DNA of 38,892 nucleotides from Thermoproteota archaeon (GTDB lineage Archaea > Korarchaeota > Korarchaeia > Korarchaeales > Korarchaeaceae), in contig JALSOH010000008.1 in assembly GCA_026986575.1 (NCBI GenBank), positions 1 through 38,892 of the forward strand, given 5' to 3'. A program made the translations under genes and the position numbers. The notes below the pieces were generated by a model that had not been told where the DNA came from, ran no database searches, and worked only from the letters and a program-made list of their open reading frames with translations. Shown in pieces: positions 3,898 through 17,234 of this stretch. The stretch's first letter is position 1. Every line of letters starts with the position of its first letter.

Positions 3898-5046
3898 ATG
3901 CCTTCCAAGCCGCACGGGGGTAGGTTGATAAATAGGGTGGCCAGCCGATCAAGGGCCGAGAGACTATTAGATGAAGCTAAGGAAATGAGGACGTTCCCCA
4001 TGAATACGGCTGTAGCGGTCGACATGGAGAACATCGCCAGAGGAATATACAGCCCCTTACAGGGGTTCATGGTTCAAGAGGACTTCGAATCCGTCCTTGA
4101 CGGCATGAGGCTCGCTAACGACGTTCCTTGGACCATCCCCATAGTCTTGGATGTTAGTGATAAGGATCTACGGGAGGTATTAGAGGGAGATGAGGTGGCC
4201 CTCACCTACGATGGCGAGCCGGTGGCAATCATGGAAGTGGAGGAAATATACGCGTACGACAAGAGGGAACTCGCGGAGAAGGTCTACGGCACGCTCAGCG
4301 AGGAGCATCCCGGAGTCGTCAAGACCATGAACATGGAGGACAGGCTGGTCGGGGGTAGGATAACCCTCATCGAGCCTTTACCGAACCCCTACGAGAGGTA
4401 CACCCTCTGGCCCCACGAAACTAGGATACTCTTCAGGGAGAGGGGGTGGAGATATGTGGTGGGCTTTCAGACCAGAAACGCACCTCACATGGGACATGAG
4501 GCCATACAGAAGACCGCTCTAGCCATCGCTGACGGCCTCTTCGTCAATCCAGTGATAGGGAGGAAGAAGGTAGGGGATTTCAGGGACGAAGTCATCTTAG
4601 AGGCTTACAGGTCCCTGATAGAGAACTACTTCCCCAAGGACACTGTAGCTTTAGTCATCCTCCGCTACGAGATGAGGTACGCTGGCCCTAGGGAAGCGAT
4701 ACACCACGCGATCATGAGGAAGAATTATGGGTGCACCCACTTCATCGTGGGGAGGGATCACGCGGGCGTGGGCAACTTCTATCCCCCGTATGCCGCTCAG
4801 GAAATCTTCAAGAAGTTCCCAGACTTGGGAATACAGCCCCTCTTCTTCAGAGAGTTCTTCTACTGCAGGAGGTGCGGGGGGATGGTCAACGAGAAGACGT
4901 GCCCCCATCCCGAGGAGGACAGGGTCAGGATAAGCGGAACGACTATCAGGAAGATGTTGAGTGAAGGTAAGATGCCGCCCAAGGAGATGATGAGGCCCGA
5001 AGTCGCAAAGGCAATACTGAGGTTCGAGAACCCCTTCGTCTCGTGA
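3898..5046 (+). CDS. sat: Sulfate adenylyltransferase (ATP sulfurylase, Sat type)
   Basis: PHGGRL N-terminus, YSPLQGFM, FQTRNAPHMGHE (QxRN and HxxH), MRYAGPREA, HFIVGRDHAG, and the Zn site CRRC...CPH. Confidence 0.98.
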   Translation: MPSKPHGGRLINRVASRSRAERLLDEAKEMRTFPMNTAVAVDMENIARGIYSPLQGFMVQEDFESVLDGMRLANDVPWTIPIVLDVSDKDLREVLEGDEVALTYDGEPVAIMEVEEIYAYDKRELAEKVYGTLSEEHPGVVKTMNMEDRLVGGRITLIEPLPNPYERYTLWPHETRILFRERGWRYVVGFQTRNAPHMGHEAIQKTALAIADGLFVNPVIGRKKVGDFRDEVILEAYRSLIENYFPKDTVALVILRYEMRYAGPREAIHHAIMRKNYGCTHFIVGRDHAGVGNFYPPYAAQEIFKKFPDLGIQPLFFREFFYCRRCGGMVNEKTCPHPEEDRVRISGTTIRKMLSEGKMPPKEMMRPEVAKAILRFENPFVS

Positions 5047-5067
5047 GTTAAGGTGAGGGTGATATAG

Positions 5068-6453
5068 ATGGACGCGAAGGAGAGGATGATGGTCATAGGA
5101 CTGGATTCAGCACCTCCTTCTACCACGTTCGAGCGTTTCCTAGATGTGATGCCAAACCTAACGGAGATACTTGACTCATCCATGTACGGGCCCCTCAGAA
5201 GCACCCACCCACCAATAACGGTGCCCGCATGGGCTGTGATGGCTACTGGGCTGACCCCTGGCGAGCTGGGGATGTACGGCTTCAGGCACCGCAAGCCCGG
5301 GGACTATACTGACTACTACCTGATAACGTCCAAAAATCTGGATAGGCCGGCTGTGTGGGATTTCCTAGCCGAGAAAGGGCTAAAGTCCCTCCTCGTCGGG
5401 TTCCCACCGTCTTACCCACCCATGAAGGTCAGGGGGTGGCTGATAAGCGACTTCCACACCCCCTCCGATGCGAAGAACTACACCTACCCACCGTGGTTCC
5501 GGATGGAAGTGGAGAGGATAGCCGGAGGGAGATTCATCCACGACGTGGAGTTCAGAGTCGAAAACAGACGCCCTCTTATGAGGGAGCTCCGGAGGATGAC
5601 CGAGCAGCACCTCAGGGTGGTGGAGAAGCTGGCTAAAGGTAAGGAATGGTCCCTCCTCTGGTACGTTGAGATAGGCGTGGACAGGCTCCACCACGCCTTC
5701 TGGAAGTTCTTCGATGAGAATCACCCGAGGCATGTGAATGATGAGGAGCTGGCTGAGTTCGTTGAGCAGTACTACAGACTGATCGACGATGGAATAGGAA
5801 AGCTTAAGAAGGCTGCGCCTGACGCCCATCTGCTCATAGTCTCGGATCACGGGGCCAAGGCCATGGAGGGAGCATTCGTGATAAACGAGTGGCTCGCTGA
5901 CAACGGCTACCTTGAATTCGAGGAGAGGCCTGAGGAGCAGACCCCCCTCGGCAAGGCTAAAATCAGGTGGGAGAGGACTAAAGCTTGGGGGTGGGGTGGC
6001 TACTACGCGAGGATCTTCGTGAACGTGAAGGGGAGGGAGCCCCAAGGGGTGGTGGATCCTGATGACGCCGAATCCTTGATAAGGCAGATAGCTGACGATC
6101 TGAATGAGGTGACACTTCCTAGCGGGAGGAAGATGGGTGCACAGGTCTACCTGCCTGAAGAGCTCTACCCGGAGGTGAGGGGGGATTCGCCGGATGCGAT
6201 AGCCTACTTCGGCGACCTAGCTTGGAGATCAGCTGGGACGGTGGGGCACGGGAGGTGGTTCTTGGAGGAGAATGATACCGGACCAGATGATGCGGTCCAC
6301 GACTGGGATGGAATTTACGTGCTTTACGATCCCGAGGGGAGGGTGCCTGCGGGACAGGATGGTAGGGAAATATATGATGTAGCTCCAACGATCTTGGAGA
6401 TCTTCAATTTCGACATTCCTAACAGGCTGAAGAGCGGGAGTATTCTGAGGTGA
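5068..6453 (+). CDS. AlkP-superfamily protein (nucleotide pyrophosphatase/phosphodiesterase-like)
   Basis: GLDSA, PPITVPAW (Thr nucleophile position), DRLHH, VSDHG, HDWDG and DVAPTIL motifs; no signal peptide; lies between sat and cysC. Confidence 0.93.
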   Translation: MDAKERMMVIGLDSAPPSTTFERFLDVMPNLTEILDSSMYGPLRSTHPPITVPAWAVMATGLTPGELGMYGFRHRKPGDYTDYYLITSKNLDRPAVWDFLAEKGLKSLLVGFPPSYPPMKVRGWLISDFHTPSDAKNYTYPPWFRMEVERIAGGRFIHDVEFRVENRRPLMRELRRMTEQHLRVVEKLAKGKEWSLLWYVEIGVDRLHHAFWKFFDENHPRHVNDEELAEFVEQYYRLIDDGIGKLKKAAPDAHLLIVSDHGAKAMEGAFVINEWLADNGYLEFEERPEEQTPLGKAKIRWERTKAWGWGGYYARIFVNVKGREPQGVVDPDDAESLIRQIADDLNEVTLPSGRKMGAQVYLPEELYPEVRGDSPDAIAYFGDLAWRSAGTVGHGRWFLEENDTGPDDAVHDWDGIYVLYDPEGRVPAGQDGREIYDVAPTILEIFNFDIPNRLKSGSILR

Positions 6454-6457
6454 TCCC

Positions 6458-6997
6458 ATGAACTGTGATAAGGGTTTCGTTATCTGGCTCACGGGACTGC
6501 CGGCTGCTGGCAAAACTACCCTAGCGAGAGCCTTGAAGGAGGAGCTTCAGAAGGCTGGAAAGAGAGTAGAACTCCTTGATGGGGATGAGGTAAGGAGATG
6601 GCTCAGCCCTGAAGCAGGATTCACCAAGGAGGACAGGGAGAGGCACCTGATGAGGGTTGCCTATGTCTCTAGGCTACTGGCTAGGAATGGTGTGGCTGTG
6701 ATAGCGTCTTTCGTCTCACCCTACAGGGAAGTGAGGAGTAAAGTAAGGAAGATCGTGGAGGAGGACGCGAAGTTCATTGAGGTTTATGTAAGATGCCCCT
6801 TGGAGGTAGTTATAGAGAGGGATCCGAAAGGGTTGTATAAGAAGGCTCTAGCTGGCGAAATAAGGAACTTCACGGGGGTAGATGACCCGTATGAGGAACC
6901 ATTAAATCCGGAAATTGTTGTGGATAGCAGTGAGATGGATATAAGAGACGAAGTCTTTGAGGTAATGAGGTATTTACGAGAGGGTCATCTCATATGA
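6458..6997 (+). CDS. cysC: Adenylyl-sulfate (APS) kinase
   Basis: WLTGLPAAGKTT P-loop, LDGDEVR, GFTKEDR, RDPKGLY and FTGVDDPYEEP motifs. Confidence 0.98.
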   Translation: MNCDKGFVIWLTGLPAAGKTTLARALKEELQKAGKRVELLDGDEVRRWLSPEAGFTKEDRERHLMRVAYVSRLLARNGVAVIASFVSPYREVRSKVRKIVEEDAKFIEVYVRCPLEVVIERDPKGLYKKALAGEIRNFTGVDDPYEEPLNPEIVVDSSEMDIRDEVFEVMRYLREGHLI

Positions 6998-7057: not shown

Positions 7058-8548
7058 TCAATCGCGAATTGGAGAATATCTTCTCTTTAATTCCTTCACC
7101 TTACGTCTCACCTTAAATTTCCAGAGATTAATTTTCTGAATATTCTGCCGTATCTGCGTTTCGAAATCAAAGCACTCAAAGCGTATTCTACCTTCAGCTG
7201 TGTTCATGACAGGCAGACCTAGGGCAGCTAGGGCAGTTGGAAGGATATCTTCTATTCCTACCTTGAAATCTGGGCATGACACAACTCCCTTCCCCCACAA
7301 GCCAAACACACCTTTGATGTGGTGTATGCCTTTCAGCGCCTTCAAAGCAGGCCTAAGGTGATCAGGGCTCCATGGCATGAAGTGATCGCACGCAAGTCCG
7401 TCCTCTAAATGTACTATTAAGTCCGGTCCATCCTTTCCAGGATCCACCAAAACCTCCTTAACGTAGGATTCGGATTTCAGAGCATCTACCACCTCTACGA
7501 GATCGCTATCAGAGTATTTCAGGAGATATATTAGGCAGTACCCCGTCAACGGTCCAATTCCGATAGCGATGCTCTCATCCAAATTCACATCATCCCTTGA
7601 GAGCAGGAACTTCTTAACGAGCCTAGTTACTGTGCTCTCCCTCCAAGTCATCCCCCCAACAGACTTCGATCCCTCCCTGAGCCCTAGGAGTAACTTTGTG
7701 AACATCCGCTTAAATCGGGTTTTTAGAGACCGTTTTAATGATAGGAGCCCCCTCTTCTCTAGGAAGGAGTTTATTAGAAAACTCCCATCGAAGTTCATGA
7801 AGCCGTGATCGCTAGCCACCAGTAGCAGGGACTTCCTATCCTTCTTCAGGAGATCCATGGCTTCTCCAAGAATATTATCCGCCTTTTGGTAAGCTATCGT
7901 CATAAGATCCTCGTTATCCCACGCGAAATGAGAAATATGATCAATTTCAGAGAGCCACACGATGGACAGCTTGGGTCTATAGGTCTCTCTCAGCCTGAGG
8001 AAAAGTTTCCAGCGTTGATACATATCTTCCAACGGTTTCCTCAGGGACTCCTCGGATAACTCGTGGGGAACATTAACTTCGGGGCCCAACTCATATTTCC
8101 TCAACTCCTCTAACAGGGAATCAGGATATGCGAATCTACTAGCCTTGGAGAGAGGAAATCCAGCCACTATGAATCCCTTTCTCACCCTGAAGGGCGGGGA
8201 TATGAAGGGAACATTGAATACACCAATAGAAAACCCCAATTCGTTGGCAAGATCTATAACTGTAGGGATCCCTACTTTATTAGCGAATACAAGCTCTCCT
8301 TCCTTAAGCCCGAGCCTATCAAACCTTCTAAAATCGAAAATACCCGTCATCTCTGAGCTGGCTCCTGTGAGAAATGATGCGGCGCATGATACTGTTATAG
8401 GTGGAATATTCGATATGAGCTCTCCGAAGAAACCTCTCTCTGCAAGCTTCGAGAAGTTCTCAAGCCTCTCCATATGGTTTCGAATGAAGTAAGGGGACAA
8501 ACCGTCGAACACAAGAATAATGGCTTCCTCGTAAGGAATCTCTGACAT
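7058..8548 (-). CDS. Second AlkP-superfamily (NPP-like) protein
   Basis: VFDGL, PPITVSCAASFLTG, DHISH, ASDHGF, GIHHIKG and EDILPT motifs. Likely start MSEIPY at 8548 (track ORF begins at 8596). Confidence 0.9.
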   Translation of the reverse strand: MSEIPYEEAIILVFDGLSPYFIRNHMERLENFSKLAERGFFGELISNIPPITVSCAASFLTGASSEMTGIFDFRRFDRLGLKEGELVFANKVGIPTVIDLANELGFSIGVFNVPFISPPFRVRKGFIVAGFPLSKASRFAYPDSLLEELRKYELGPEVNVPHELSEESLRKPLEDMYQRWKLFLRLRETYRPKLSIVWLSEIDHISHFAWDNEDLMTIAYQKADNILGEAMDLLKKDRKSLLLVASDHGFMNFDGSFLINSFLEKRGLLSLKRSLKTRFKRMFTKLLLGLREGSKSVGGMTWRESTVTRLVKKFLLSRDDVNLDESIAIGIGPLTGYCLIYLLKYSDSDLVEVVDALKSESYVKEVLVDPGKDGPDLIVHLEDGLACDHFMPWSPDHLRPALKALKGIHHIKGVFGLWGKGVVSCPDFKVGIEDILPTALAALGLPVMNTAEGRIRFECFDFETQIRQNIQKINLWKFKVRRKVKELKRRYSPIRD

Positions 8549-8765
8549 CTTGGTGAAGGTTGGCGCAGCCCTAAAAAAGATTAGCTGTTTTATCATCTCA
8601 TAGGAAACGCGTTATCGGGAAGTAACCTTTTACAGTGGACCGGAGTCGAAGGGTCTAGTAATAGATTGCGTGACCGCACTCTTCTCAACAATAACTATCT
8701 TGGAGGTCTTAGTAGATAAGGTGGAATAGAGCTAGGAATTAGTTAAGTAGGATAGAATCAGCTCA

Positions 8766-8972
8766 TTAAATGTAGCCGAGTCTCCTCAACCTCTCTTTGA
8801 TCTCCTCTTCCTCCTCGGGAGAGTATACCTCCCCGCTCTCTTCCGAGACGAATTCTCTCAGCAGGAAGGTAACTAGTTCTTCAACTGAGGAGAAGTCCTC
8901 ATTCTCATTTACCCACTTCTCAGCTCTCTCGTATAGAGCTCTGGGGATGCTAATCGTCACTCTATCCTCCAT
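8766..8972 (-). CDS. Small ribbon-helix-helix (CopG-like) protein with C-terminal EEEEEIKERLRRLGYI tail
   Basis: RVTISIPRALYERAEKWV...FSSVEELVTFLLRE fits an RHH fold; upstream GGTGAGG ribosome-binding site. Confidence 0.88.
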   Translation of the reverse strand: MEDRVTISIPRALYERAEKWVNENEDFSSVEELVTFLLREFVSEESGEVYSPEEEEEIKERLRRLGYI

Positions 8973-9102
8973 TTGTCCTCACCTAGCAGCGTCCCTGACC
9001 CCCCATCACGAGAATACTTAAAAAGCCTGTGCTGTATCTGGGTCATGTATAATCTCACTCGCAGCGAGGGAGGTCGCCGCTTCATTGAATTCAGGTGATG
9101 GT

Positions 9103-10002
9103 ATGCGATTAGACGATTCTCCTACCGAAAATGATTTGCTTAGCATAGACTGGGATATAGCCATAATATTAGATGCAATGAGATATGACTTCTTTAAGGA
9201 GCTATACAACCATTTCTTCGAGGGGAAGCTGAAAGGAGTCGAATCTAAAGGATCCTGTACCCCAGAATGGTTCAGGAAGACCTTCACATCGTATTACAGC
9301 GATATAATATACATCTCAGCTAATCCTTACATAAATTCTTTACCAATTAGAGCATATAGCTATAAAGCTATTGAGCACTTCCCTGAGGTGATAGATGTCT
9401 GGCTCTATGGATGGGACAGCTTGCTGGGTACTGTAGTACCTCAGGAGGTAAACAGGATCGCTAAGAAGATCATAGATCTAGAGGCCAGTGCGAATAAGAG
9501 GATCATCGTACATTACCTCCAACCGCACGCCCCATACCTGACCCCCGAAGGATACGCGTTAGGCTTTCCTAATCCGTTGCCTGATAAGCAGATGTTCTTG
9601 ATGGGAATCGATGCCAGAGAGGGAAAAATTAAGCAAAAGTTGAAGAGATTGCTAGTTATAGCATCCGGCTTACTAGTAAGGACGGGCATACCTAACGGCT
9701 ACATCTGGAGGTTAGTTGAACTCTTGGGGATGTCCCCTATCTCTCCCTTGGATGCCACGAGGAGGAAGGTGGGAATTGAAGGGTTAAAACGGGCTTACCT
9801 TTACAACACATTGATTGTGTTGGAGGCGGTAGCTAAATTAGTTAAAGATCTAGATATGAGAGTGGTGATAACGGCCGATCACGGCGAGTTCCTAGGGGAG
9901 AATAACATGTTCAGCCACCCATGTAATCACGGCAACCCCATCCTAAAACATGTTCCACTTTTTCAATTGAAAAGGGTAAAGAAAGCTGATTTAGGGATTT
10001 AG
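9103..10002 (+). CDS. Third AlkP/sulfatase-like protein (short archaeal type)
   Basis: ILDAMRYD, SKGSCTPEWF, HYLQPHAPY, TADHGEFLGE, FSHP and HVP motifs; no CxPxR motif. ATG at 9103 follows GGTGA (track start is TTG 9085). Confidence 0.85.
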   Translation: MRLDDSPTENDLLSIDWDIAIILDAMRYDFFKELYNHFFEGKLKGVESKGSCTPEWFRKTFTSYYSDIIYISANPYINSLPIRAYSYKAIEHFPEVIDVWLYGWDSLLGTVVPQEVNRIAKKIIDLEASANKRIIVHYLQPHAPYLTPEGYALGFPNPLPDKQMFLMGIDAREGKIKQKLKRLLVIASGLLVRTGIPNGYIWRLVELLGMSPISPLDATRRKVGIEGLKRAYLYNTLIVLEAVAKLVKDLDMRVVITADHGEFLGENNMFSHPCNHGNPILKHVPLFQLKRVKKADLGI

Positions 10003-10335: not shown

Positions 10336-11487
10336 ATGAGGATCTACATTGTTATGGATAGTCCACCGTACCCCTACGCCATAGGAGGGGCTGAGATCTT
10401 TGCTCACATTCTCTCTAATGCCTTAGTACAGCTAGGACATGAGATCCACTTAGTGAGCGTTAAGTTCGGGGAGAAAACCCATGTGGATGCTAGGGATATA
10501 GAGATCCTCTATAATAGAACGATCATCAATGTAAGGGGCCCTTTCTTGGGGAGGACTCTCAATTACCTGACCTTGAAGAAGCGGCTGAAGGACCTACCTC
10601 CTGAAGGAGATGTGGTCTTCTCAATGATGGGTCATTCTTCTCTCTTAGGTTATCTAGTGAAGAAATACCTGAGAGCTAGGGCCTTAGCATTGGTATTTGC
10701 CGGTCTTGATACTGAAATACTAGCTAGGCGTGTTCACTCACTTAGGGAACTTCTCTATTACCTAGTAATGACGGTTGGATTGAAGCTAGGTCAGAGGGAG
10801 AATTGGTACATCGCTCTCACCGAAATAATGAGGAAGAAACTATCCAGATTCCTTGACAACAGCAGGATAAGAGTTATTCCTGTCGGGATAGAGGATAGAT
10901 TTTTTGAGATAAAAAGAGATGAGGTTAGTGGAAATGACATTTTGTTCGTAGGTAGACTAGAGGAGGTCAAGAATATCCGGATACTGATAAAGGCCTTCGA
11001 GCGACTTGTGAGAGAGTTGCCCGAGGCAAGGCTTATCATAGTGGGGGAAGGTTCCCAGAAGAGAAAGCTGAAAAGATACATTGATAATAAACCTGCCTTA
11101 AAGAACTCTATTCTTCTCGTTGGGGCGGTTCCTCATGAGCAGATCCACGAGTATTACAAAAAGGCGTCAGTTATTGTCATGCCATCCAAGTATGAGGGTC
11201 TATCTCTGGCCGCTCTTCAGGGAATGGCCTCCGGAATGCCTTTGGTAGCAGCTAAGGTGGGCGGCCTTCAAGAAATAGTAAAGCACGGATATAACGGTCT
11301 CTTATTCAATCCTGGATCAGTAGACGAGTTGTTTAAAGCGCTAACGTACTTGCTGAGAAATAAAGAGGCTCTGCTTAAAATGGGGATTAATGCTAGGAAA
11401 TACGCTTACATGTTTAAGATAAAGAATATCGCCAAGCTATACGAGCAGTTCGCTAGGGAGCTAATGACCTTCATTGAAGGTAGATGA
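10336..11487 (+). CDS. Glycosyltransferase family 4 (GT-B)
   Basis: GGAE, VIPVGI, FVGRLEEVKN, PSKYEGLSLAALQGMASGMP and GYNGLL motifs. Confidence 0.95.
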   Translation: MRIYIVMDSPPYPYAIGGAEIFAHILSNALVQLGHEIHLVSVKFGEKTHVDARDIEILYNRTIINVRGPFLGRTLNYLTLKKRLKDLPPEGDVVFSMMGHSSLLGYLVKKYLRARALALVFAGLDTEILARRVHSLRELLYYLVMTVGLKLGQRENWYIALTEIMRKKLSRFLDNSRIRVIPVGIEDRFFEIKRDEVSGNDILFVGRLEEVKNIRILIKAFERLVRELPEARLIIVGEGSQKRKLKRYIDNKPALKNSILLVGAVPHEQIHEYYKKASVIVMPSKYEGLSLAALQGMASGMPLVAAKVGGLQEIVKHGYNGLLFNPGSVDELFKALTYLLRNKEALLKMGINARKYAYMFKIKNIAKLYEQFARELMTFIEGR

Positions 11488-13330
11488 CTAGCGATGGGAG
11501 CGTCCTTATCAAAGTAGGAGCTACACAGCAAATAATTAGTAGGATCACCGCTATTTTGAAATAAAATCTCCTTCTTATCAGGAGATTACTTAGTTTCCTG
11601 AGGAAGTAACTGAAGCCTAGGATTCCCAATGGTAACTTTACTGCCCACAGGAGTTTCCATTCATAGAATTCGTAATGGAAATAACTCTTGCTTATTGTTA
11701 TGGTTTTGGCAGTAATGAAGGACATGAGCGCAAGGAAAATTAGATAATAGCTTCCCCTTGAACCCTTCTCCGTTAACTGTATAAGCGTAAGTAATCCATC
11801 TAAACCGAGGACGTAGGGATAAAGTAAAATCCTTATAGAACCATCTTCGAGTACTAATTGTGTGTGACTTCTTATGGAGATCAGTGATAGCACCACTAGT
11901 ATTATATACACAAGAACCGCGCTGTCCTTTAGTATATTGACAAAATCCTGAGATATAATGAGCTTATCACACAATAACCCGGTTATATTGCTTACCTTTG
12001 AAAACATTTTACTAAAAATTTTATGAAAAGAGGGTGCTATAGCGAGGAGGAATGCCAAAGTAGATAGGAATAGAGAGTACATGGTAAAATGGAAGCGGGC
12101 CCCGCGGTAGGGATTTAAAAGTACCATACACATCACATTGAGAAACGCTGTACCTATTAGACATAAAACAATGTATCGAATTCCCTTAAGGAATGATGTG
12201 GAAAATCCAAGGAAAATTATCTGGAGACATAAAGCAGTTATAATAATAGATTCGAATATATGGGTTAGGTAAAGTGCCGAAATTGTCAGGCCGAGAATGA
12301 ATAGGTATTTCGCATCCATCTTAACCGGTTCTTTTTGTGTTATTTCTCCACTATTAATTCTCAGCACCATCCAAATGGTGAATGCGTAGAGTATCAACCC
12401 GAAAACTCTAAGGTCAGAAAAAATGGCTTCGTATCTTAAGAAAGCGAAATGCGTATTTACTAGAGTGTCATAATATATGGATTCTTTTATTGCATTCAAT
12501 ACGTTAATTATATTATCGGCAGTTATTTGAGTGATCTCGAGACCGTAGAGCAATCTTTCAGCTATGTCTATAGTGAAGTCGATCCCCGCGAAGCCCCAAG
12601 AAAAGACAGAGAAGTTTACGATAAAGGTTACGATAATGTCCAAATCATTTTTATTTAAACTTCTTACCGCCTCTTTAATCAAGATATAGAGGGTTGCTGG
12701 CCATAGAATTGATGTCCAAAGTACTATGAGTGTTTTCAAGATAGCATCACTCGAAGGCTCCGAAATGGAGATTAGCGCTCCCAAGAAAACTTCATAAAGG
12801 GGAGGATATGCATGATAAGGCAATTGAAGCTTCCAGAGAGAGATTCCGGCTTCATAATGTCTGTTTAAGTCGAGGTTACCATACTTTATGATATTTGGAT
12901 AAATTAGGAGAACAGAAAATGAGTTAAATAATATAAGTCCGATAAGTGTCAGAAGTTCATATTTACTGATTTTAATGTCACTACTTTTTTTGGAAATAAG
13001 AGGTTCGTTACTAGAAGATAGAAGTGATCCCATATAAACAATAAATTCGAGAGCGACCGTTAATAATAAAATTAATTTTTTAATAGACAGATCAAGAGGT
13101 AATGAAATCACGAGCAATGACAGGAAAGCCGTTACTACATAACTAAGTATAAAGGATGCAACAAGGAGTTCAACAATTGATGAGGAAGGCCACCTAATCA
13201 TACGTAATAGAATTAAACCGGGAAAGAAGAGGAGGGTTGGGAGGGACAAGATTACTTTAAGTATCCCCCATGCGTTAATGCCAGTTATGTTCATTGCTAA
13301 GAGTGTTAAGATAAGTGATATTCCCACCAA
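11471..13330 (-). CDS. Polytopic membrane protein, GT-C-like; strongly AT-rich
   Basis: Many hydrophobic segments; DLNRH followed by YPPLY after the N-terminal TM bundle; LTHIFES and YEWK motifs matching the neighbouring large protein. Function is inferred. Confidence 0.7.
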   Translation of the reverse strand: MVGISLILTLLAMNITGINAWGILKVILSLPTLLFFPGLILLRMIRWPSSSIVELLVASFILSYVVTAFLSLLVISLPLDLSIKKLILLLTVALEFIVYMGSLLSSSNEPLISKKSSDIKISKYELLTLIGLILFNSFSVLLIYPNIIKYGNLDLNRHYEAGISLWKLQLPYHAYPPLYEVFLGALISISEPSSDAILKTLIVLWTSILWPATLYILIKEAVRSLNKNDLDIIVTFIVNFSVFSWGFAGIDFTIDIAERLLYGLEITQITADNIINVLNAIKESIYYDTLVNTHFAFLRYEAIFSDLRVFGLILYAFTIWMVLRINSGEITQKEPVKMDAKYLFILGLTISALYLTHIFESIIITALCLQIIFLGFSTSFLKGIRYIVLCLIGTAFLNVMCMVLLNPYRGARFHFTMYSLFLSTLAFLLAIAPSFHKIFSKMFSKVSNITGLLCDKLIISQDFVNILKDSAVLVYIILVVLSLISIRSHTQLVLEDGSIRILLYPYVLGLDGLLTLIQLTEKGSRGSYYLIFLALMSFITAKTITISKSYFHYEFYEWKLLWAVKLPLGILGFSYFLRKLSNLLIRRRFYFKIAVILLIICCVAPTLIRTLPSLVIYLQ

Positions 13331-13712
13331 TGAAGTGAGAATATCTTTCTCTCTTCATACTTTAACCCTCAGGCAGATTAGGATGGAGACAATATTTATC
13401 AAACTATTATTGTTACTACTTAACCTAGTCTAGTTAGGCTAGATTAATTATTAAAATCAATGTATTTATCCTAACTCCCATACGCGAGATGGTGACAAAT
13501 ACTACCCACCCTTACTAACGACATCTTAGTTTACAGTATCCAGACCATTCAGGATCAAACGACTATATTTGCGAATCCCACTGGATTAATATCCTAGAGT
13601 AGTCTTCTGCGCGGAGGGCCCTATGCGTCAAATCGTGAACCATCGATCTGCTGACCCGATAAGAAAGCTAAATCATATTAAGGTTTGGACAGGCTTCTCA
13701 GTTCGATGTAGA

Positions 13713-16700
13713 ATGAAATTAAAAGCACAAAACATTTGGTTCCCACTTACTGTGTTCGTGTTTTCCATTCCTACGGCGTTTCTCACAAACTTAGGTCTCG
13801 TAAGCGGGGCACTAGTGTTGCTACCAGTACTGGCGGCATTCTCTATGACTTTACAACACGGAATGAAGTATGATACATCCCTAATATCTAGGATCATGAG
13901 CCTTATACCCCTCCCACTCCTCGCCATCTCGCTCTACTTTCCTGATCCTTTGATCAGGTCCCTAACTTCGATTATTTTCCTCATGCTCATGCCCTACGGC
14001 TTTGTCTCAATGCTAAATGAACCACTATCTGCTAGGGTCGCTCTGACGTTCGTGATCGGGATCTTTCTGTCAATTCTCATAATTTTAGTCGGGATATTGA
14101 CGACGACAGATTTGATACTGCCTGCTCTGGCTCTGCTAGCATCTCTATCGGCAATTACAGGAGTTTTAGCTGGAGGTAAAAAGAACTCTGTAGAAGTCCC
14201 CCTTAACTACCTCCTCGAGGTGTTATTCCTCTCGATATTCTTCCTTGTTGAATTATCGGTTGCCTATCCCGGAATCCTGAGGATGATAAGTAATGACCTT
14301 CTATATCATCAATCCTATGCCAGAAAACTAATTTTGAGCCCCTCTAAGTACAACATGTGGAGCTACCTCGGATATCACTCAATTTTGGCCTCCACATTTA
14401 AGATATCATCACCTGATGTGCTCTCCCTAATGATATCAGCATCTATCTTGAATTTTTTCGCATTTTTAATGGTAGCCGCTTCCTTCACCAAACTATCTTA
14501 CAAAGAGGAAGCTCTGTTCCTGTGGAGTCTGCTGACCGGTTTCGGCTGGCTAGCAGTAGTCAAATACGGCAGTGACGTCAAAGGTCTGGAAGCGGCGAAC
14601 AACGCCTCCTACAAATCGTTAGTGTGGAGCCAGCCCATATTCTTCTGGGCTCTTCCTCTCACCCTCGCCATAGGGGTACTCTCCCTTCTGATCTACGTGG
14701 ACTCTTTCACTGAAAGTAAGTGGAAACCCCTGCTGGTCTTCGTGCTGACCTGTACCTCATTCCTCCTACATGTGGCAGAAGCCATTCTGTTCGTGGCATA
14801 CCTTTTCGTGATGGCCCTCCTGTTTGGAAAGAGGAGGGAAAGCGCCTTCGGAGCCACGGCCGCGGGTGCTCTACTCACCATTCTGTACTTAATACCTGGC
14901 ATCTACTCAGGAAATGCACCGAGCTCCTCCAAGTACTTGCTAGTCGCTTCTGTGGCTGCACTGATAGTTAGCGAACTTAGGGACAGGCTACTCTCAGGAC
15001 TCGGAAGGATAATTGAGTTATTGAGTAGGCGAAGGCGGGAGATCTCCGCATTCTTACTCTCCATCCTCACTACGGGACTCATAATTTGGCTGGTTCATAT
15101 GGATGAGGTGGATGTGAATTCCCTTTACTATTTAGGGCAGGTCCCATGGTTCTTTTATCCGATGATGCTGGGCGTCTCGGCCTTCCTGGCAGTCGTTCAG
15201 CTGAGGTCGAGATTCCGCCTAGAATACGCTGTATTCGTTCTCGTTAGTCTCCTCCTAGGAAGGCTCATCACCTATTACAAGCTGATGGGTTTCACCCTTG
15301 CCTACTGGGAGTATAGATTTCCTCTGTACGCATCACTGGGAATTGCTGTTCTAGCGGCTCCACTCATAGGCAACCTCAGAAGGAGGACTGGGAGGAAATG
15401 GATAGCTGCCCTTCTGCTAGGGCTGATCTTCTTCTCGGGATATGCGACGACTACTGCCAGCGTACAGATATGGTATAATGTAAACGAGTACGGTGAGGAT
15501 CTCATCCTACCTTCGGACTTTAAGTTCGCAATTAGGTCTAGGTTCTTCGAGACCCACCACATGCCAGCCCTCGTGCTCACCTCTTACTCGTCAGCCATGA
15601 TACCACTGATGAATCCTCCATCGACCGTAAAGCAGATGGTACCGTGGCTATCTTCCGGTCCGGAGATCCCACTCTATTTGCTCAACAGTGTCACTTCTAA
15701 GGAGAAGGTGGCTGCTCTCTTCACGATCTCTGATCTGGGGTTCTTGGAGAAGAGTAATGCGTCCTTCAGCTACCTTAGAAGGTTCATGGGACCTCTCCTC
15801 TCATATCCCTCCCTGACCCCTATAAACCTAAAGCCTCCCGTCTCCCCCGAGTCGAATCTCGCTATAATCCTTCCAGCCGATATTTATCTGAGGAGGAGGG
15901 CCCTTGTTGCATACGAGCTGATCAGGGGACAGCTTTCTCCTCACACGATCTACCTGAGCGATGATCCGGCAGCTCCCGACGGTGTGTTCATAGGAGCTAA
16001 ATCCGATGAGGTCACGATAGACGAGGATCTGCCCGCTGACCCCTTCGATCTCAGATGGATATACATCTGGGGCAATTTCTCTCGGGGATTAAAGGTATCC
16101 GGAAAGAGGAACGTTGCTATATCCTCATATCAATTGGAGAACGGCACGTATGAGATCAGCGCATGTGGCATCATGACAGGATACGTGGGAGCGATCTATT
16201 CCTTTAGGAACTTCGCCAATTACAGAATACTCCAAATCTTCTTGGAGAATGGGATAGCAGTCGAAAGGTTGGTTGAGGGAGGCGAGGTAAAGTCCGGAAA
16301 GCCCATCCCAGTGCCTATCAGGGTGTCTGACAACTGCTTGAATTTGACGCTCACATCCAACGGAACAATCTCTGCAATCGTGAATGGGAAGATCATCAAG
16401 CTCTCAGGTGGTGAACTTGGAGTCGTTGGGCTGGAGACCTCGGATTTCAGTGGGATAATTCACGGCCATGTGAGAGGAGTTCATAGGATTCAGAAGATGA
16501 ACGCTTCAATCGTCCTAGACGTCGTCGAAGGAGAGCTGGCTGAGTGGGTGGATCGAGCACTTAGAAACATTTCAAAGACGAGAACGGAGTTCGATCTCAA
16601 GATACATGTACCAAGGGGAGAGATCAAACGCATCAAACCAGTTGCCGCCTCTATAGACTTGGAGGCATCGGGTGACGTGGTGATAACTGGAAGACCGGTC

Positions 16701-17234
16701 TGGAAGTACACGGATGGAGATAAGACCTACCTGAACGAGGGCGTTGTCACACTGAGGGCCTCAAAGATAAGCTTCAAAGGAGGCGAGGGGTTCTATGTAG
16801 ATATAAGCATAGAAGGGGCCGAGTCCAAGTGGAATGATGGTGGGAAAGCTCTGATTAGATTCAGAACTCCTCTAGAGATACGCGCGCAGGGGAATATCAC
16901 CCTTCACAGATTCCACTACATCAAGGGGTATGTGGGTAAGGCTGCCACTTTGAATGTCAGTGCGGCCAATTTAACCGTGATCGCTGCGGACAACTCTCTC
17001 GTCTTCAGCAAGGTTGAAATACCGGAGAAGAACCTTGTCAAGAGGGCTATGTGGAGGGCCTTTGACGAGACCCGTTATCTTGGCGAGTCGCTCTTGGCAG
17101 TAATCGTGCTGACATCTGTCTTCCTCTACATCGACAGGAGGTACCGGTGGGAGCCACCGATGGCGAGGACTCCGGCCAAGAGGAGGAGAAAGGGGAAGGA
17201 GAGGAAAGGGAAGGGAAAGGGAGGTAAGAGCTAA
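13713..17234 (+). CDS. Large membrane protein: GT-C-like N-terminal TM domain, beta-rich extracytoplasmic region, C-terminal TM helix and basic tail
   Basis: About 600 aa of TM helices (NDLLYH, LHVAEA, WEYRF), then a soluble region rich in NxS/T sequons, a final TM (LLAVIVLTSVFLYI) and an RRRKGKERKGKGKGGKS tail. ATG 13713 preferred over 13623. Confidence 0.75.
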   Translation: MKLKAQNIWFPLTVFVFSIPTAFLTNLGLVSGALVLLPVLAAFSMTLQHGMKYDTSLISRIMSLIPLPLLAISLYFPDPLIRSLTSIIFLMLMPYGFVSMLNEPLSARVALTFVIGIFLSILIILVGILTTTDLILPALALLASLSAITGVLAGGKKNSVEVPLNYLLEVLFLSIFFLVELSVAYPGILRMISNDLLYHQSYARKLILSPSKYNMWSYLGYHSILASTFKISSPDVLSLMISASILNFFAFLMVAASFTKLSYKEEALFLWSLLTGFGWLAVVKYGSDVKGLEAANNASYKSLVWSQPIFFWALPLTLAIGVLSLLIYVDSFTESKWKPLLVFVLTCTSFLLHVAEAILFVAYLFVMALLFGKRRESAFGATAAGALLTILYLIPGIYSGNAPSSSKYLLVASVAALIVSELRDRLLSGLGRIIELLSRRRREISAFLLSILTTGLIIWLVHMDEVDVNSLYYLGQVPWFFYPMMLGVSAFLAVVQLRSRFRLEYAVFVLVSLLLGRLITYYKLMGFTLAYWEYRFPLYASLGIAVLAAPLIGNLRRRTGRKWIAALLLGLIFFSGYATTTASVQIWYNVNEYGEDLILPSDFKFAIRSRFFETHHMPALVLTSYSSAMIPLMNPPSTVKQMVPWLSSGPEIPLYLLNSVTSKEKVAALFTISDLGFLEKSNASFSYLRRFMGPLLSYPSLTPINLKPPVSPESNLAIILPADIYLRRRALVAYELIRGQLSPHTIYLSDDPAAPDGVFIGAKSDEVTIDEDLPADPFDLRWIYIWGNFSRGLKVSGKRNVAISSYQLENGTYEISACGIMTGYVGAIYSFRNFANYRILQIFLENGIAVERLVEGGEVKSGKPIPVPIRVSDNCLNLTLTSNGTISAIVNGKIIKLSGGELGVVGLETSDFSGIIHGHVRGVHRIQKMNASIVLDVVEGELAEWVDRALRNISKTRTEFDLKIHVPRGEIKRIKPVAASIDLEASGDVVITGRPVWKYTDGDKTYLNEGVVTLRASKISFKGGEGFYVDISIEGAESKWNDGGKALIRFRTPLEIRAQGNITLHRFHYIKGYVGKAATLNVSAANLTVIAADNSLVFSKVEIPEKNLVKRAMWRAFDETRYLGESLLAVIVLTSVFLYIDRRYRWEPPMARTPAKRRRKGKERKGKGKGGKS

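Follow-up and report, generated by a model that had tools for sequence, protein, structure and literature searches.

An archaeal ribbon-helix-helix protein from a sulfation gene cluster carries a C-terminal tail that recurs on enzymes and is predicted to dock into an alkaline-phosphatase-type enzyme

The RHH gene and its sulfation island

The DNA analysed here, referred to as the window, is a stretch of 38,892 nucleotides from a Thermoproteota archaeon (GenBank assembly GCA_026986575.1, contig JALSOH010000008.1) that contains a small gene for a 68-amino acid ribbon-helix-helix (RHH) protein in the midst of genes for sulfate activation and for proteins of the alkaline phosphatase (AlkP) type. 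The RHH gene occupies positions 8766..8972 of the minus strand, starts with ATG, ends with a stop codon at 8766-8768 and is preceded on its 5' side by the Shine-Dalgarno-like sequence GGTGAGG. The full product of this open reading frame (ORF) is MEDRVTISIPRALYERAEKWVNENEDFSSVEELVTFLLREFVSEESGEVYSPEEEEEIKERLRRLGYI, and its C-terminal end is YSPEEEEEIKERLRRLGYI, also written ...VYSPEEEEEIKERLRRLGYI. Residues 1-46 (8835..8972, minus strand) represent the RHH domain with the strand RVTISIP and helices at residues 11-23 and 30-46, as assigned from an AlphaFold2 model, Foldseek matches and a profile match to NikR. Residues 47-68 (8769..8834, minus strand) represent a tail module, recognized by its conserved alignment columns and its predicted contacts with the enzyme AlkP1 encoded nearby, which consists of an acidic linker (YSPEEEEE) and an amphipathic helix with an LGY end (IKERLRRLGYI). 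It shows all features of the module, namely an acidic run, an amphipathic helix of the pattern [IV]-[KR]-x-R-L-x-x-L and a G-Y pair no more than about 7 residues from the C-terminus. The RHH gene is the sole ORF with a C-terminal L..LGY in the whole 1.91-Mb genome and gives the single match when the 22-residue tail is used as a query against its own genome. A second L..LGY match in a 470-amino acid ORF on contig 6 was dropped, the motif being located 9 residues before the end of an unrelated-looking protein.

The AlphaFold2 model of the RHH protein, computed with 110 family members in the alignment, has a predicted local distance difference test score (pLDDT) of 81.7, with values of 85-95 over residues 1-40. 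Helices are found at residues 11-23, 30-46 and 52-65 and no secondary structure is assigned to residues 1-10. The best Foldseek matches of the model in the PDB are mostly RHH proteins (NikR, Arc, CopG, CopA, ORF56, omega, ParD and PutA), with root-mean-square deviations of 1.2-2.4 Å over 42-48 columns, yet with E-values of 0.3 or higher, as expected because the RHH fold is so small. The profile of the RHH family reaches NikR with an E-value of 0.05. In Pfam, the protein remains below threshold (best model RHH_5, E 0.095, 12.9 bits vs a cut-off of 26), and in NCBIfam it has no match above threshold. The model and the Foldseek matches exhibit the strand-helix-helix fold of about 45 residues typical of the superfamily, and no curated RHH sequence model is matched above its threshold. 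By its fold, though by no curated sequence model, the 68-amino acid protein belongs to the RHH superfamily, and we consider this assignment, derived from the predicted structure, to be sound.

Upstream in window coordinates, positions 3898-6997 of the plus strand form a tight co-directional block of three genes with gaps of 21 and 4 nucleotides. It encodes sulfate adenylyltransferase (Sat, 3898..5046; NCBIfam NF003166, 8e-164, above cut-off), the 461-amino acid PF01663 enzyme AlkP1 (5068..6453; Pfam PF01663, 1e-39) and adenylylsulfate (APS) kinase (6458..6997; Pfam APS_kinase, 1.6e-62). The gene of AlkP1, to which the tail is predicted to bind, is flanked by the two genes that make 3'-phosphoadenylyl sulfate (PAPS); the enzyme has no assigned activity and may be the sulfotransferase of the cluster. 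Its gene is located 2.3 kb from the RHH gene in the window and adjacent to the RHH gene in other loci. Directly downstream of the RHH gene lies AlkP2 (7058..8596, minus strand), a 512-amino acid long-form PF01663 protein (Pfam, 1.4e-31), while a 305-amino acid AlkP/sulfatase-like protein (9085..10002, plus strand; weak Pfam Sulfatase match, 2e-4) is encoded divergently from it. The intergenic region between the divergent genes (8973..9084) contains, on the minus strand, the TATA-like sequence CTTTTTAAGTAT, as well as a short inverted repeat. This repeat, CTCGC-A-GCGAG (9049-9075), separates a TATAAT-like box from the start of the 305-amino acid protein gene and is unconserved in two relatives.

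The ORF listing confirms the starting point of an earlier note on this DNA, namely that the RHH protein carries the tail and that all three AlkP-type proteins of the window are tail-less; they end SGSILR (AlkP1), RYSPIRD (AlkP2) and KADLGI (305-amino acid protein). The AlkP2 C-terminus (...KVRRKVKELKRRYSPIRD) resembles the basic tail helix without the LGY, and a Bathyarchaeia homologue of AlkP2 (L206) similarly ends ...IKQRLKKLMRERRL. By-eye comparison with tail-bearing and tail-degenerate homologues suggests that the AlkP2 end may be a degenerate, decayed tail.

The RHH-tail family, its gene neighbourhoods and candidate operators

Sixteen close homologues of the RHH protein (59-100% identity) share invariant residues Y50, P52, E53, E55-E57, I58, R61, L62, R63, L65, G66 and Y67, and the sequence comparison indicates that the gene is real and under selection. 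Two close homologues from Korarchaeota carry the database name 'CopG family transcriptional regulator'. Searching 1.84 billion representatives with a profile of the close homologues returned 1026 clusters at E ≤ 1e-3, of which 102 reach E ≤ 1e-10, and the best 150 matches are nearly all 64-80 residues long and aligned end to end. In 162 of 165 family proteins, a G-Y pair is found among the last 7 residues, so the penultimate tyrosine on which the earlier note had built is conserved, and 153 of the 165 are no longer than 85 residues. After the tyrosine comes one hydrophobic residue, either alone or with a further D, E, S or G. In an alignment of 110 sequences, L62, G66 and Y67 are invariant, F27, R61 and L65 nearly so, and the strand and the F-S-S-V turn of the RHH domain are kept in the family. 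The position of Tyr50 is occupied by Y, F or L across the wider family and represents no conserved tyrosine.

Three paralogue types (A, B and C) can be distinguished, all of which end [KR]-R-L-[RK]-x-L-G-Y-[ILM]. Type A, the type found in the window, varies in its strand residues, and its genes often come at the 3' end, and not the 5' end, of Sat-AlkP1-APS kinase operons. Type B genes (...[KR]YTTVSIP...) are found 15-56 nucleotides upstream of Sat on the same strand, with a distance of 110 nucleotides in one locus. Type C proteins (...EYVNIPIPRPLYERLAKALEGSGYRS...) possess a short linker, and their genes stand together with type A genes directly upstream of AlkP1-like genes. The distance from the end of the RHH gene to the AlkP1-like gene is 6-16 nucleotides in four loci (L100, L124, L129 and L143). 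Unusual members were also observed, some with two tandem tails on one RHH domain (P0035, 107 residues) and others that look like two RHH-tail units joined head to tail (P0018, 185 residues).

To describe gene linkage, we considered the genomes of the window's phylum and a wider set of loci. Among 43 genomes of the phylum, the RHH-tail gene is present in 24 and APS kinase in 19; both genes occur in 18, APS kinase alone in 1, the RHH-tail gene alone in 6 and neither in 18. Sixteen of the 17 phylum genomes with an AlkP1 orthologue (E < 1e-100) contain the RHH-tail gene. All 31 tail matches in the 43 genomes are located in small ORFs (58-146 residues from stop to stop). In tblastn searches with the window proteins, 12 of 20 loci had the RHH gene beside one or more of Sat, AlkP1 and APS kinase or beside AlkP2 and the 305-amino acid protein gene, and the remaining loci showed no cluster neighbours, partly as their contigs are short. 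The wider scan, with one genome per species, yielded 80 loci and used patterns that favour close relatives of type A, so that these loci are a non-random sample of the family. They come from Korarchaeia-like genomes, Acidilobaceae, Desulfurococcales, Pyrodictiaceae, Thermofilaceae, Bathyarchaeia, Geothermarchaeota, Methanomethylicia-type genomes, Baldrarchaeum and two Nitrospiraceae bacteria. Within 6 kb of the RHH gene, 53 of the 80 loci contain Sat, APS kinase or a homologue of AlkP1, and the complete Sat-AlkP1-APS kinase trio recurs in 26; when only full 12-kb loci are counted, 17 of 25 contain at least one of the three. The RHH gene of the window is likewise found within about 6 kb of these genes. 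In a complete genome of another phylum (L199), the gene order is RHH, Sat, AlkP1, APS kinase. Five Acidilobaceae/Desulfurococcales-type genomes have loci with Sat, APS kinase and RHH genes and without AlkP1; a PF01663 protein is encoded elsewhere in 5/5 of these genomes compared with 11/14 controls, a comparison that does not separate the two groups. The family is large and unnamed and is dedicated to gene clusters for sulfate activation and sulfation.

Type B genes are associated with a conserved palindrome. TAATTA-N4-TAATTA, with at most 1 mismatch, is present within 230 nucleotides upstream of 21 of 23 type B genes vs 25 of 2897 background windows drawn from these loci (palindrome-bearing loci L079, L080, L083, L086, L088, L089, L091, L096, L099, L104, L108, L110, L111, L113, L115, L123, L130, L137, L140, L144 and L149). 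This 16-bp element is often doubled and is kept from the G+C-rich Acidilobaceae to the A+T-rich Geothermarchaeota. It probably serves as an operator that controls the Sat operon, and it lends indirect support to the suggestion of the earlier note that the tail could couple pathway flux to RHH autoregulation.

The tail on enzymes and its predicted docking into AlkP1

The earlier note had stated that an acidic helix followed by RLxxLGY is a recurrent end of sulfatase/AlkP proteins, and our searches bear this out for AlkP-type enzymes. A 552-amino acid PF01663 protein from Bathyarchaeia (L155) ends ...YTPEEEEEIKRRLRRLGYIS, a 563-amino acid PF01663 protein of a Nitrospiraceae bacterium ends ...EEEEEEIRTKLTGLGYL, and two more PF01663 proteins of one Bathyarchaeia genome end ...IKERLRALGYLD and ...VKERLRRLGYVD. 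When 301 Bathyarchaeia genomes were searched with the 552-amino acid enzyme, 23 of 126 matches aligned through its last residues. Of the best 30 long-form loci in Bathyarchaeia, 15 possess the tail end, one further protein ends ...RLKGWGY, one has a decayed tail without GY, and the forms of about 500 residues are without a tail. The tail is also present on a 312-amino acid Bathyarchaeia homologue of the window's 305-amino acid protein (32% identity, E 8e-29), which ends ...EEEEEKIKDRLRKLGYMR. All tail searches used the window tail as a single query, which is less sensitive to divergent tails, and the counts of tail-bearing proteins are therefore lower bounds.

The claim of the earlier note that the tail is a mobile module gains support from a further carrier. 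In two Nitrospiraceae contigs, a 130-amino acid protein encoded after Sat and AlkP1 (L146:1214-1606 and L150:3058-3453) ends ...YSPEEEEEIRKRLADLGYIE. Its first half aligns with APS kinase (35% identity over 81 residues, E 1e-8) and contains no P-loop. This degenerate APS-kinase-like domain represents a third kind of tail carrier, here in bacteria. Taken together, the alignments indicate that the tail is a shuffled, portable module found on RHH, AlkP-type and APS-kinase-like domains. A related end is observed in CysD, sulfate adenylyltransferase subunit 2. A Bathyarchaeia CysD (L198:898-1749, minus strand; above the NCBIfam cut-off), located beside two RHH-tail genes (L198:1843-2022 and 2088-2306), ends ...YMMQKLRSLGYM, and HMMER aligns this KLRSLGYM end with the native ...SMEEKKRQGY of CysD in PDB entry 1zun, chain A. 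The tail may be derived from the CysD C-terminus or mimic it. In those parts of the CysD-CysN literature accessible to us, no role for the C-terminal end of CysD was found. Readings of the tail as a proteasome HbYX motif or a PCNA PIP box, judged against the consensus motifs, were rejected; a glycine precedes the tyrosine, 1-2 variable residues follow it, and a PIP box would require a different spacing.

Tail-bearing enzymes and standalone tail genes often occur in the same genomes. A tail match is found in 82 of the 301 Bathyarchaeia genomes (98 matches, 92 of them in ORFs below 160 residues) and a long-form AlkP homologue (E ≤ 1e-30) in 81. Both are present in 56 genomes, the tail alone in 26, the long-form AlkP alone in 25 and neither in 194, counts in which related genomes are not independent of each other. 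At least 28 of the 92 small tail ORFs have a long-form AlkP within 5 kb on the same contig (up to 4 candidates per genome were scored).

The AlkP1 family itself carries no tail. None of the 120 best AlkP1 homologues (47-90% identity) ends with the module, and the lone pattern match is internal (...LKVLGYP...). Profile-profile alignment shows the long-form, tail-bearing AlkPs to be homologous to AlkP1 throughout, with 30% identity. They are without the AlkP1 motifs WGWGGYYAR and ENDTGPDDAVH, both of which are part of the predicted tail interface described below. This distribution suggests that AlkP1 could be the receptor and the long-form AlkPs the tail bearers.

In three runs, we predicted the complex formed by AlkP1 and residues 39-68 of the RHH protein, using alignments of 100 homologues and 110 sequences, respectively. 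Three controls comprised two unrelated 30-residue partners and one unrelated 490-residue receptor. The interaction prediction score from aligned errors (ipSAE) was 0.71, 0.66 and 0.73 for tail and AlkP1 (median 0.71) and 0.00 for all three controls. Of the solved complexes, 116 of 157 reach the ipSAE mark, and of the mismatched pairs 2 of 215 do so, a calibration that is only rough because our own alignments were used in the tail-AlkP1 prediction. The runs have at least 88% of their contacts in common. On the tail side, residues 49-50, 53-55, 57-59 and 61-68 are predicted to be in contact. The interface of AlkP1 comprises residues 50-52, 71-73, 83, 85, 87, 89, 116-117, 129-130, 132-135, 159, 161-163, 209, 310-312, 402, 404-405 and 407. 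Among these, I50, T51, G71, F72, R73, P117, P132, D159, F162, R163, H209, G310, G311, Y312, N402, G405 and D407 are invariant in the 100 homologues. The best-defined predicted pairs are L85 of AlkP1 with I58, K59 and L62 of the tail, F72 and R73 with L62 and Y67, D159 with R61, H209 with L65, and G311 and Y312 with G66. Invariant tail positions are thereby paired with invariant AlkP1 residues, an agreement that is independent of the ipSAE. Docking of the tail into AlkP enzymes, as proposed in the earlier note, is supported, as a prediction, for the tail-less AlkP1 (0.71 vs a best control of 0.00). We take T51 of AlkP1 to be the nucleophile and D13, D205/H209, D260/H261 and H411 to be metal ligands, judging from the motif of NPP enzymes. 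With this assumption, the tail would lie in the catalytic cleft of AlkP1. No solved complex similar to the tail-AlkP1 model was found, and the PDB relatives of AlkP1 are remote (NPP, E 4e-4; arylsulfatase, E 9e-4). A search for PDB relatives of the tail-bearing AlkP found none.

A possible enzyme-coupled regulator and alternative readings

Our favoured reading, to which we assign a probability of about 0.5, is that the RHH protein is an antitoxin-style, enzyme-coupled regulator that plugs or senses AlkP1. It is a composite of several steps. The RHH module (residues 1-46) would be expected to dimerize and to bind DNA at cluster promoters. Residues 47-68 would form a flexible acidic linker and, after it, an amphipathic helix ending in L-G-Y, with the hydrophobic face of the tail (I58, L62 and L65) together with R61, G66 and Y67 docked in the catalytic cleft of AlkP1. 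One end of the protein would read DNA while the other would occupy or sense the AlkP1 active site, as in a regulator coupled to a 'trigger enzyme'. Substrate occupancy of AlkP1 and availability of the regulator could then influence each other, or the tail could keep AlkP1 inactive. The expression of the sulfation cluster would be coupled to the state of AlkP1. The direction of control between the RHH protein and AlkP1 could run either way in such an arrangement.

Several observations weigh against this reading. The window contains no TAATTA palindrome and its genome has no type B gene. A conserved operator of type A was not found in the intergenic alignment, among repeats or in the Sat upstream regions: the region between the RHH gene and the 305-amino acid protein gene shows little conservation with two relatives and only weak repeats, and the Sat upstream regions have a stretch that is common to the window and one relative only. 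DNA binding by the type A copy of the window is thus suggested by its fold and by analogy with its paralogue. With regard to gene linkage, 27 of the 80 loci show none of Sat, APS kinase and AlkP1 within reach. Short contigs account for some of these, and 8 span the full 12 kb with mostly unrelated neighbours. Among the loci without the three genes, two (L081 and L085) contain AlkP2 and the 305-amino acid protein gene, one (L145) has a PF00884 sulfatase and a radical-SAM gene nearby, in L151/L198 the RHH gene adjoins the CysD gene, in two (L109 and L119) the RHH gene directly follows a gene for an EF-1alpha/CysN-like GTPase, and the rest have neighbours unrelated to sulfation. The co-occurrence counts overstate the support because related genomes are not independent. 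The contact between tail and AlkP1 is a predicted one that supports binding and is no demonstration of it; the partner pLDDT in the complex model is only 65-67. The docking prediction covered AlkP1 alone among the enzymes of the cluster. The AlphaFold2 fold of the tail-bearing 552-amino acid AlkP has a pLDDT of 87.6 overall, 65-77 in the tail helix and 47-52 in the linker, and as a model is uninformative on docking in cis, neither showing nor excluding it.

The RHH protein could alternatively be a plain transcription factor in which the C-terminal helix is an oligomerization element, both here and in the AlkPs, with no contact between regulator and enzyme. A precedent is the Mnt repressor, where a C-terminal helix joins RHH dimers into tetramers. 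The RHH fold and the conserved palindrome upstream of the type B paralogue agree with this reading, as do the charged and amphipathic character of the tail helix, which is first acidic and then basic and could self-pair, and its moderate pLDDT in both the RHH protein and the tail-bearing AlkP. However, the invariance of I58, R61, L62, L65, G66 and Y67 and their match to an invariant AlkP1 cleft (0.71 vs 0.00) would be left unexplained, as would the fact that three unrelated domains, each from a sulfation context, bear the tail, and a G-Y end near the C-terminus is no feature of a coiled coil. We therefore consider an oligomerization role rather unlikely. Less probable still is that the tail is a substrate or carrier, with AlkP1, supplied with PAPS by the flanking Sat and APS kinase, moving sulfate or another group to Tyr67, either as a feedback mark on the regulator or as a sulfo-shuttle to other AlkP-type transferases in the sense of the earlier note. 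The small carrier proteins LysW and ThiS/MoaD possess a reactive C-terminal tail, and the RHH protein is like them in its small size, its acidic flexible tail, its invariant near-terminal residue and the location of its gene in a pathway operon. It is unlike them in that its globular part is an RHH domain, and the comparison is an analogy only. The residue that a carrier needs at or near its C-terminus is present in the form of the near-invariant tyrosine (GY in 162/165), tail residues 61-68 are predicted to lie over the region of T51 and H209 of AlkP1, presumed to be catalytic as stated above, and the AlkP1 gene lies between two PAPS-making genes. CysD is related to PAPS reductase, and its native C-terminus can be aligned with the tail-like KLRSLGYM. 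Deletion of either of two AlkP-superfamily genes is reported to affect N-glycan sulfation in Halobacterium salinarum (PMC11980604). On the other hand, 1-2 variable residues follow the tyrosine, an RHH domain and an operator-like palindrome in the family suit a regulator better than a pure carrier, and carriers fused in cis to enzymes would be unusual. The stricter proposition that AlkP1, with its alkaline phosphatase fold, functions as a PAPS-dependent protein-tyrosine sulfotransferase or as a sulfo-relay enzyme, with the LGY tail as acceptor, appears quite improbable to us. If it were true, sulfation of Tyr67 on RHH regulators and of the tails of other AlkP-type transferases would be either a direct read-out of PAPS supply feeding back on transcription or a form of activated sulfate borne by the protein and handed to glycan-modifying enzymes.

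We think it very doubtful that the RHH protein is an adaptor that does not bind DNA, in which the RHH domain would serve as a dimerization unit showing two tails that cross-link or scaffold AlkP1 and other cluster enzymes. The frequent location of type A genes at the 3' end of operons instead of the 5' end, the variable strand residues of type A and the failure to find a type A operator are what such an adaptor would lead one to expect, but the RHH strand and the F-S-S-V turn are kept in the family, the palindrome is conserved upstream of the type B paralogue, and strand variation is normal among RHH regulators with different operators. The proposal of the earlier note was that a standalone RHH-tail protein replaces in trans the tail lost by local AlkPs, on an either/or basis in each genome. 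It accords with the absence of the tail from all three AlkP-type proteins of the window, with the decayed appearance of the AlkP2 end and with the confinement of the 31 tail matches of the phylum to small ORFs. The complementary distribution that it implies is not borne out: 14 of 19 Bathyarchaeia genomes with a tail-bearing AlkP also hold a standalone small tail ORF, sometimes about 2 kb away, and the 120 best homologues of AlkP1 are tail-less in every genome concerned. On contig 13 of one genome (G222), an RHH-tail ORF, a tail-less 460-amino acid AlkP and a tail-bearing AlkP lie side by side. Owing to this co-occurrence of tail-bearing AlkPs and standalone tail genes, the tail is no trans replacement for lost cis tails, and we regard that proposal as extremely improbable. 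Sequence comparison indicates that the tail is a label common to several proteins of one system and not a substitute supplied in trans.

The RHH protein can be compared with several known systems. It shares with CopG, Arc, MetJ and NikR factors the strand-helix-helix of about 45 residues, supported by structural matches and the profile match to NikR, and differs from them by its conserved acidic-helix-LGY tail of 22 residues, which enzymes carry as well. In RHH antitoxins such as ParD, CcdA, VapB and CopA, an N-terminal RHH domain is joined to a flexible C-terminal stretch, which folds onto a partner protein and can obstruct its active site. Similar to these type II antitoxins, the RHH-tail protein is encoded by a small gene sometimes located a few nucleotides upstream of the partner gene (the four loci given above), and structures of ParD, CopA and MazE are among its Foldseek matches. 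In contrast to antitoxins, the tail also occurs in cis on enzymes and there is no sign of addiction or growth arrest. The neighbouring genes encode PF01663 enzymes, Sat, APS kinase and GT4 glycosyltransferases, none of which is a toxin family. The RHH protein is not an antitoxin proper because its predicted partner is a metabolic enzyme of the AlkP superfamily. The C-terminal extension of long-form PF01663 proteins such as the 552-amino acid enzyme of L155 is the same module nearly letter for letter, although in the window it is attached to an RHH domain and not to an enzyme. The similarity to CysD (PDB 1zun) in its C-terminal basic helix and G-Y-hydrophobic end, in a protein of sulfate activation, is short and represents a resemblance rather than established homology.

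Archaeal clusters in which Sat and APS kinase are accompanied by an enzyme of the AlkP fold instead of a classical sulfotransferase are widespread and uncharacterized. Genetic evidence that AlkP-superfamily proteins are needed in N-glycan sulfation has been available only since 2025, when deletion of either of two such genes was reported to affect this process in Halobacterium salinarum (PMC11980604). In the open-access literature, we found no description of the tail module or of a link between RHH proteins and sulfate activation. Our analysis points to a previously undescribed link between a regulator and sulfation enzymes through a common peptide. The docking model suggests that the tail could serve as a peptide ligand or inhibitor handle on AlkP1, the type B paralogue is a candidate regulator with a defined 16-bp palindrome, and the system offers a possible route for sensing sulfate activation. 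If the enzyme-coupled regulator proposed here is real, the antitoxin-style architecture of an RHH domain and a partner-plugging tail would extend from toxins to metabolic enzymes.

Some further genes were noted at these loci. The EF-1alpha/CysN-like GTPase that precedes the RHH gene in two Bathyarchaeota genomes (L109:979-2229 and L119:4730-5980) is 416 residues long, scores below the curated cut-offs of both EF-1alpha and CysN, and is itself preceded by a 230-amino acid ORF with a weak PF01663 match. In the window, GT4 glycosyltransferases flank the sulfation island on both sides. The GT4 gene beside the cluster is adjoined by a 619-amino acid ORF rich in hydrophobic stretches (11471-13330, minus strand) and by a 1203-amino acid ORF with no match in NCBIfam (13623-17234, plus strand), both of which may belong to the same glycan pathway.

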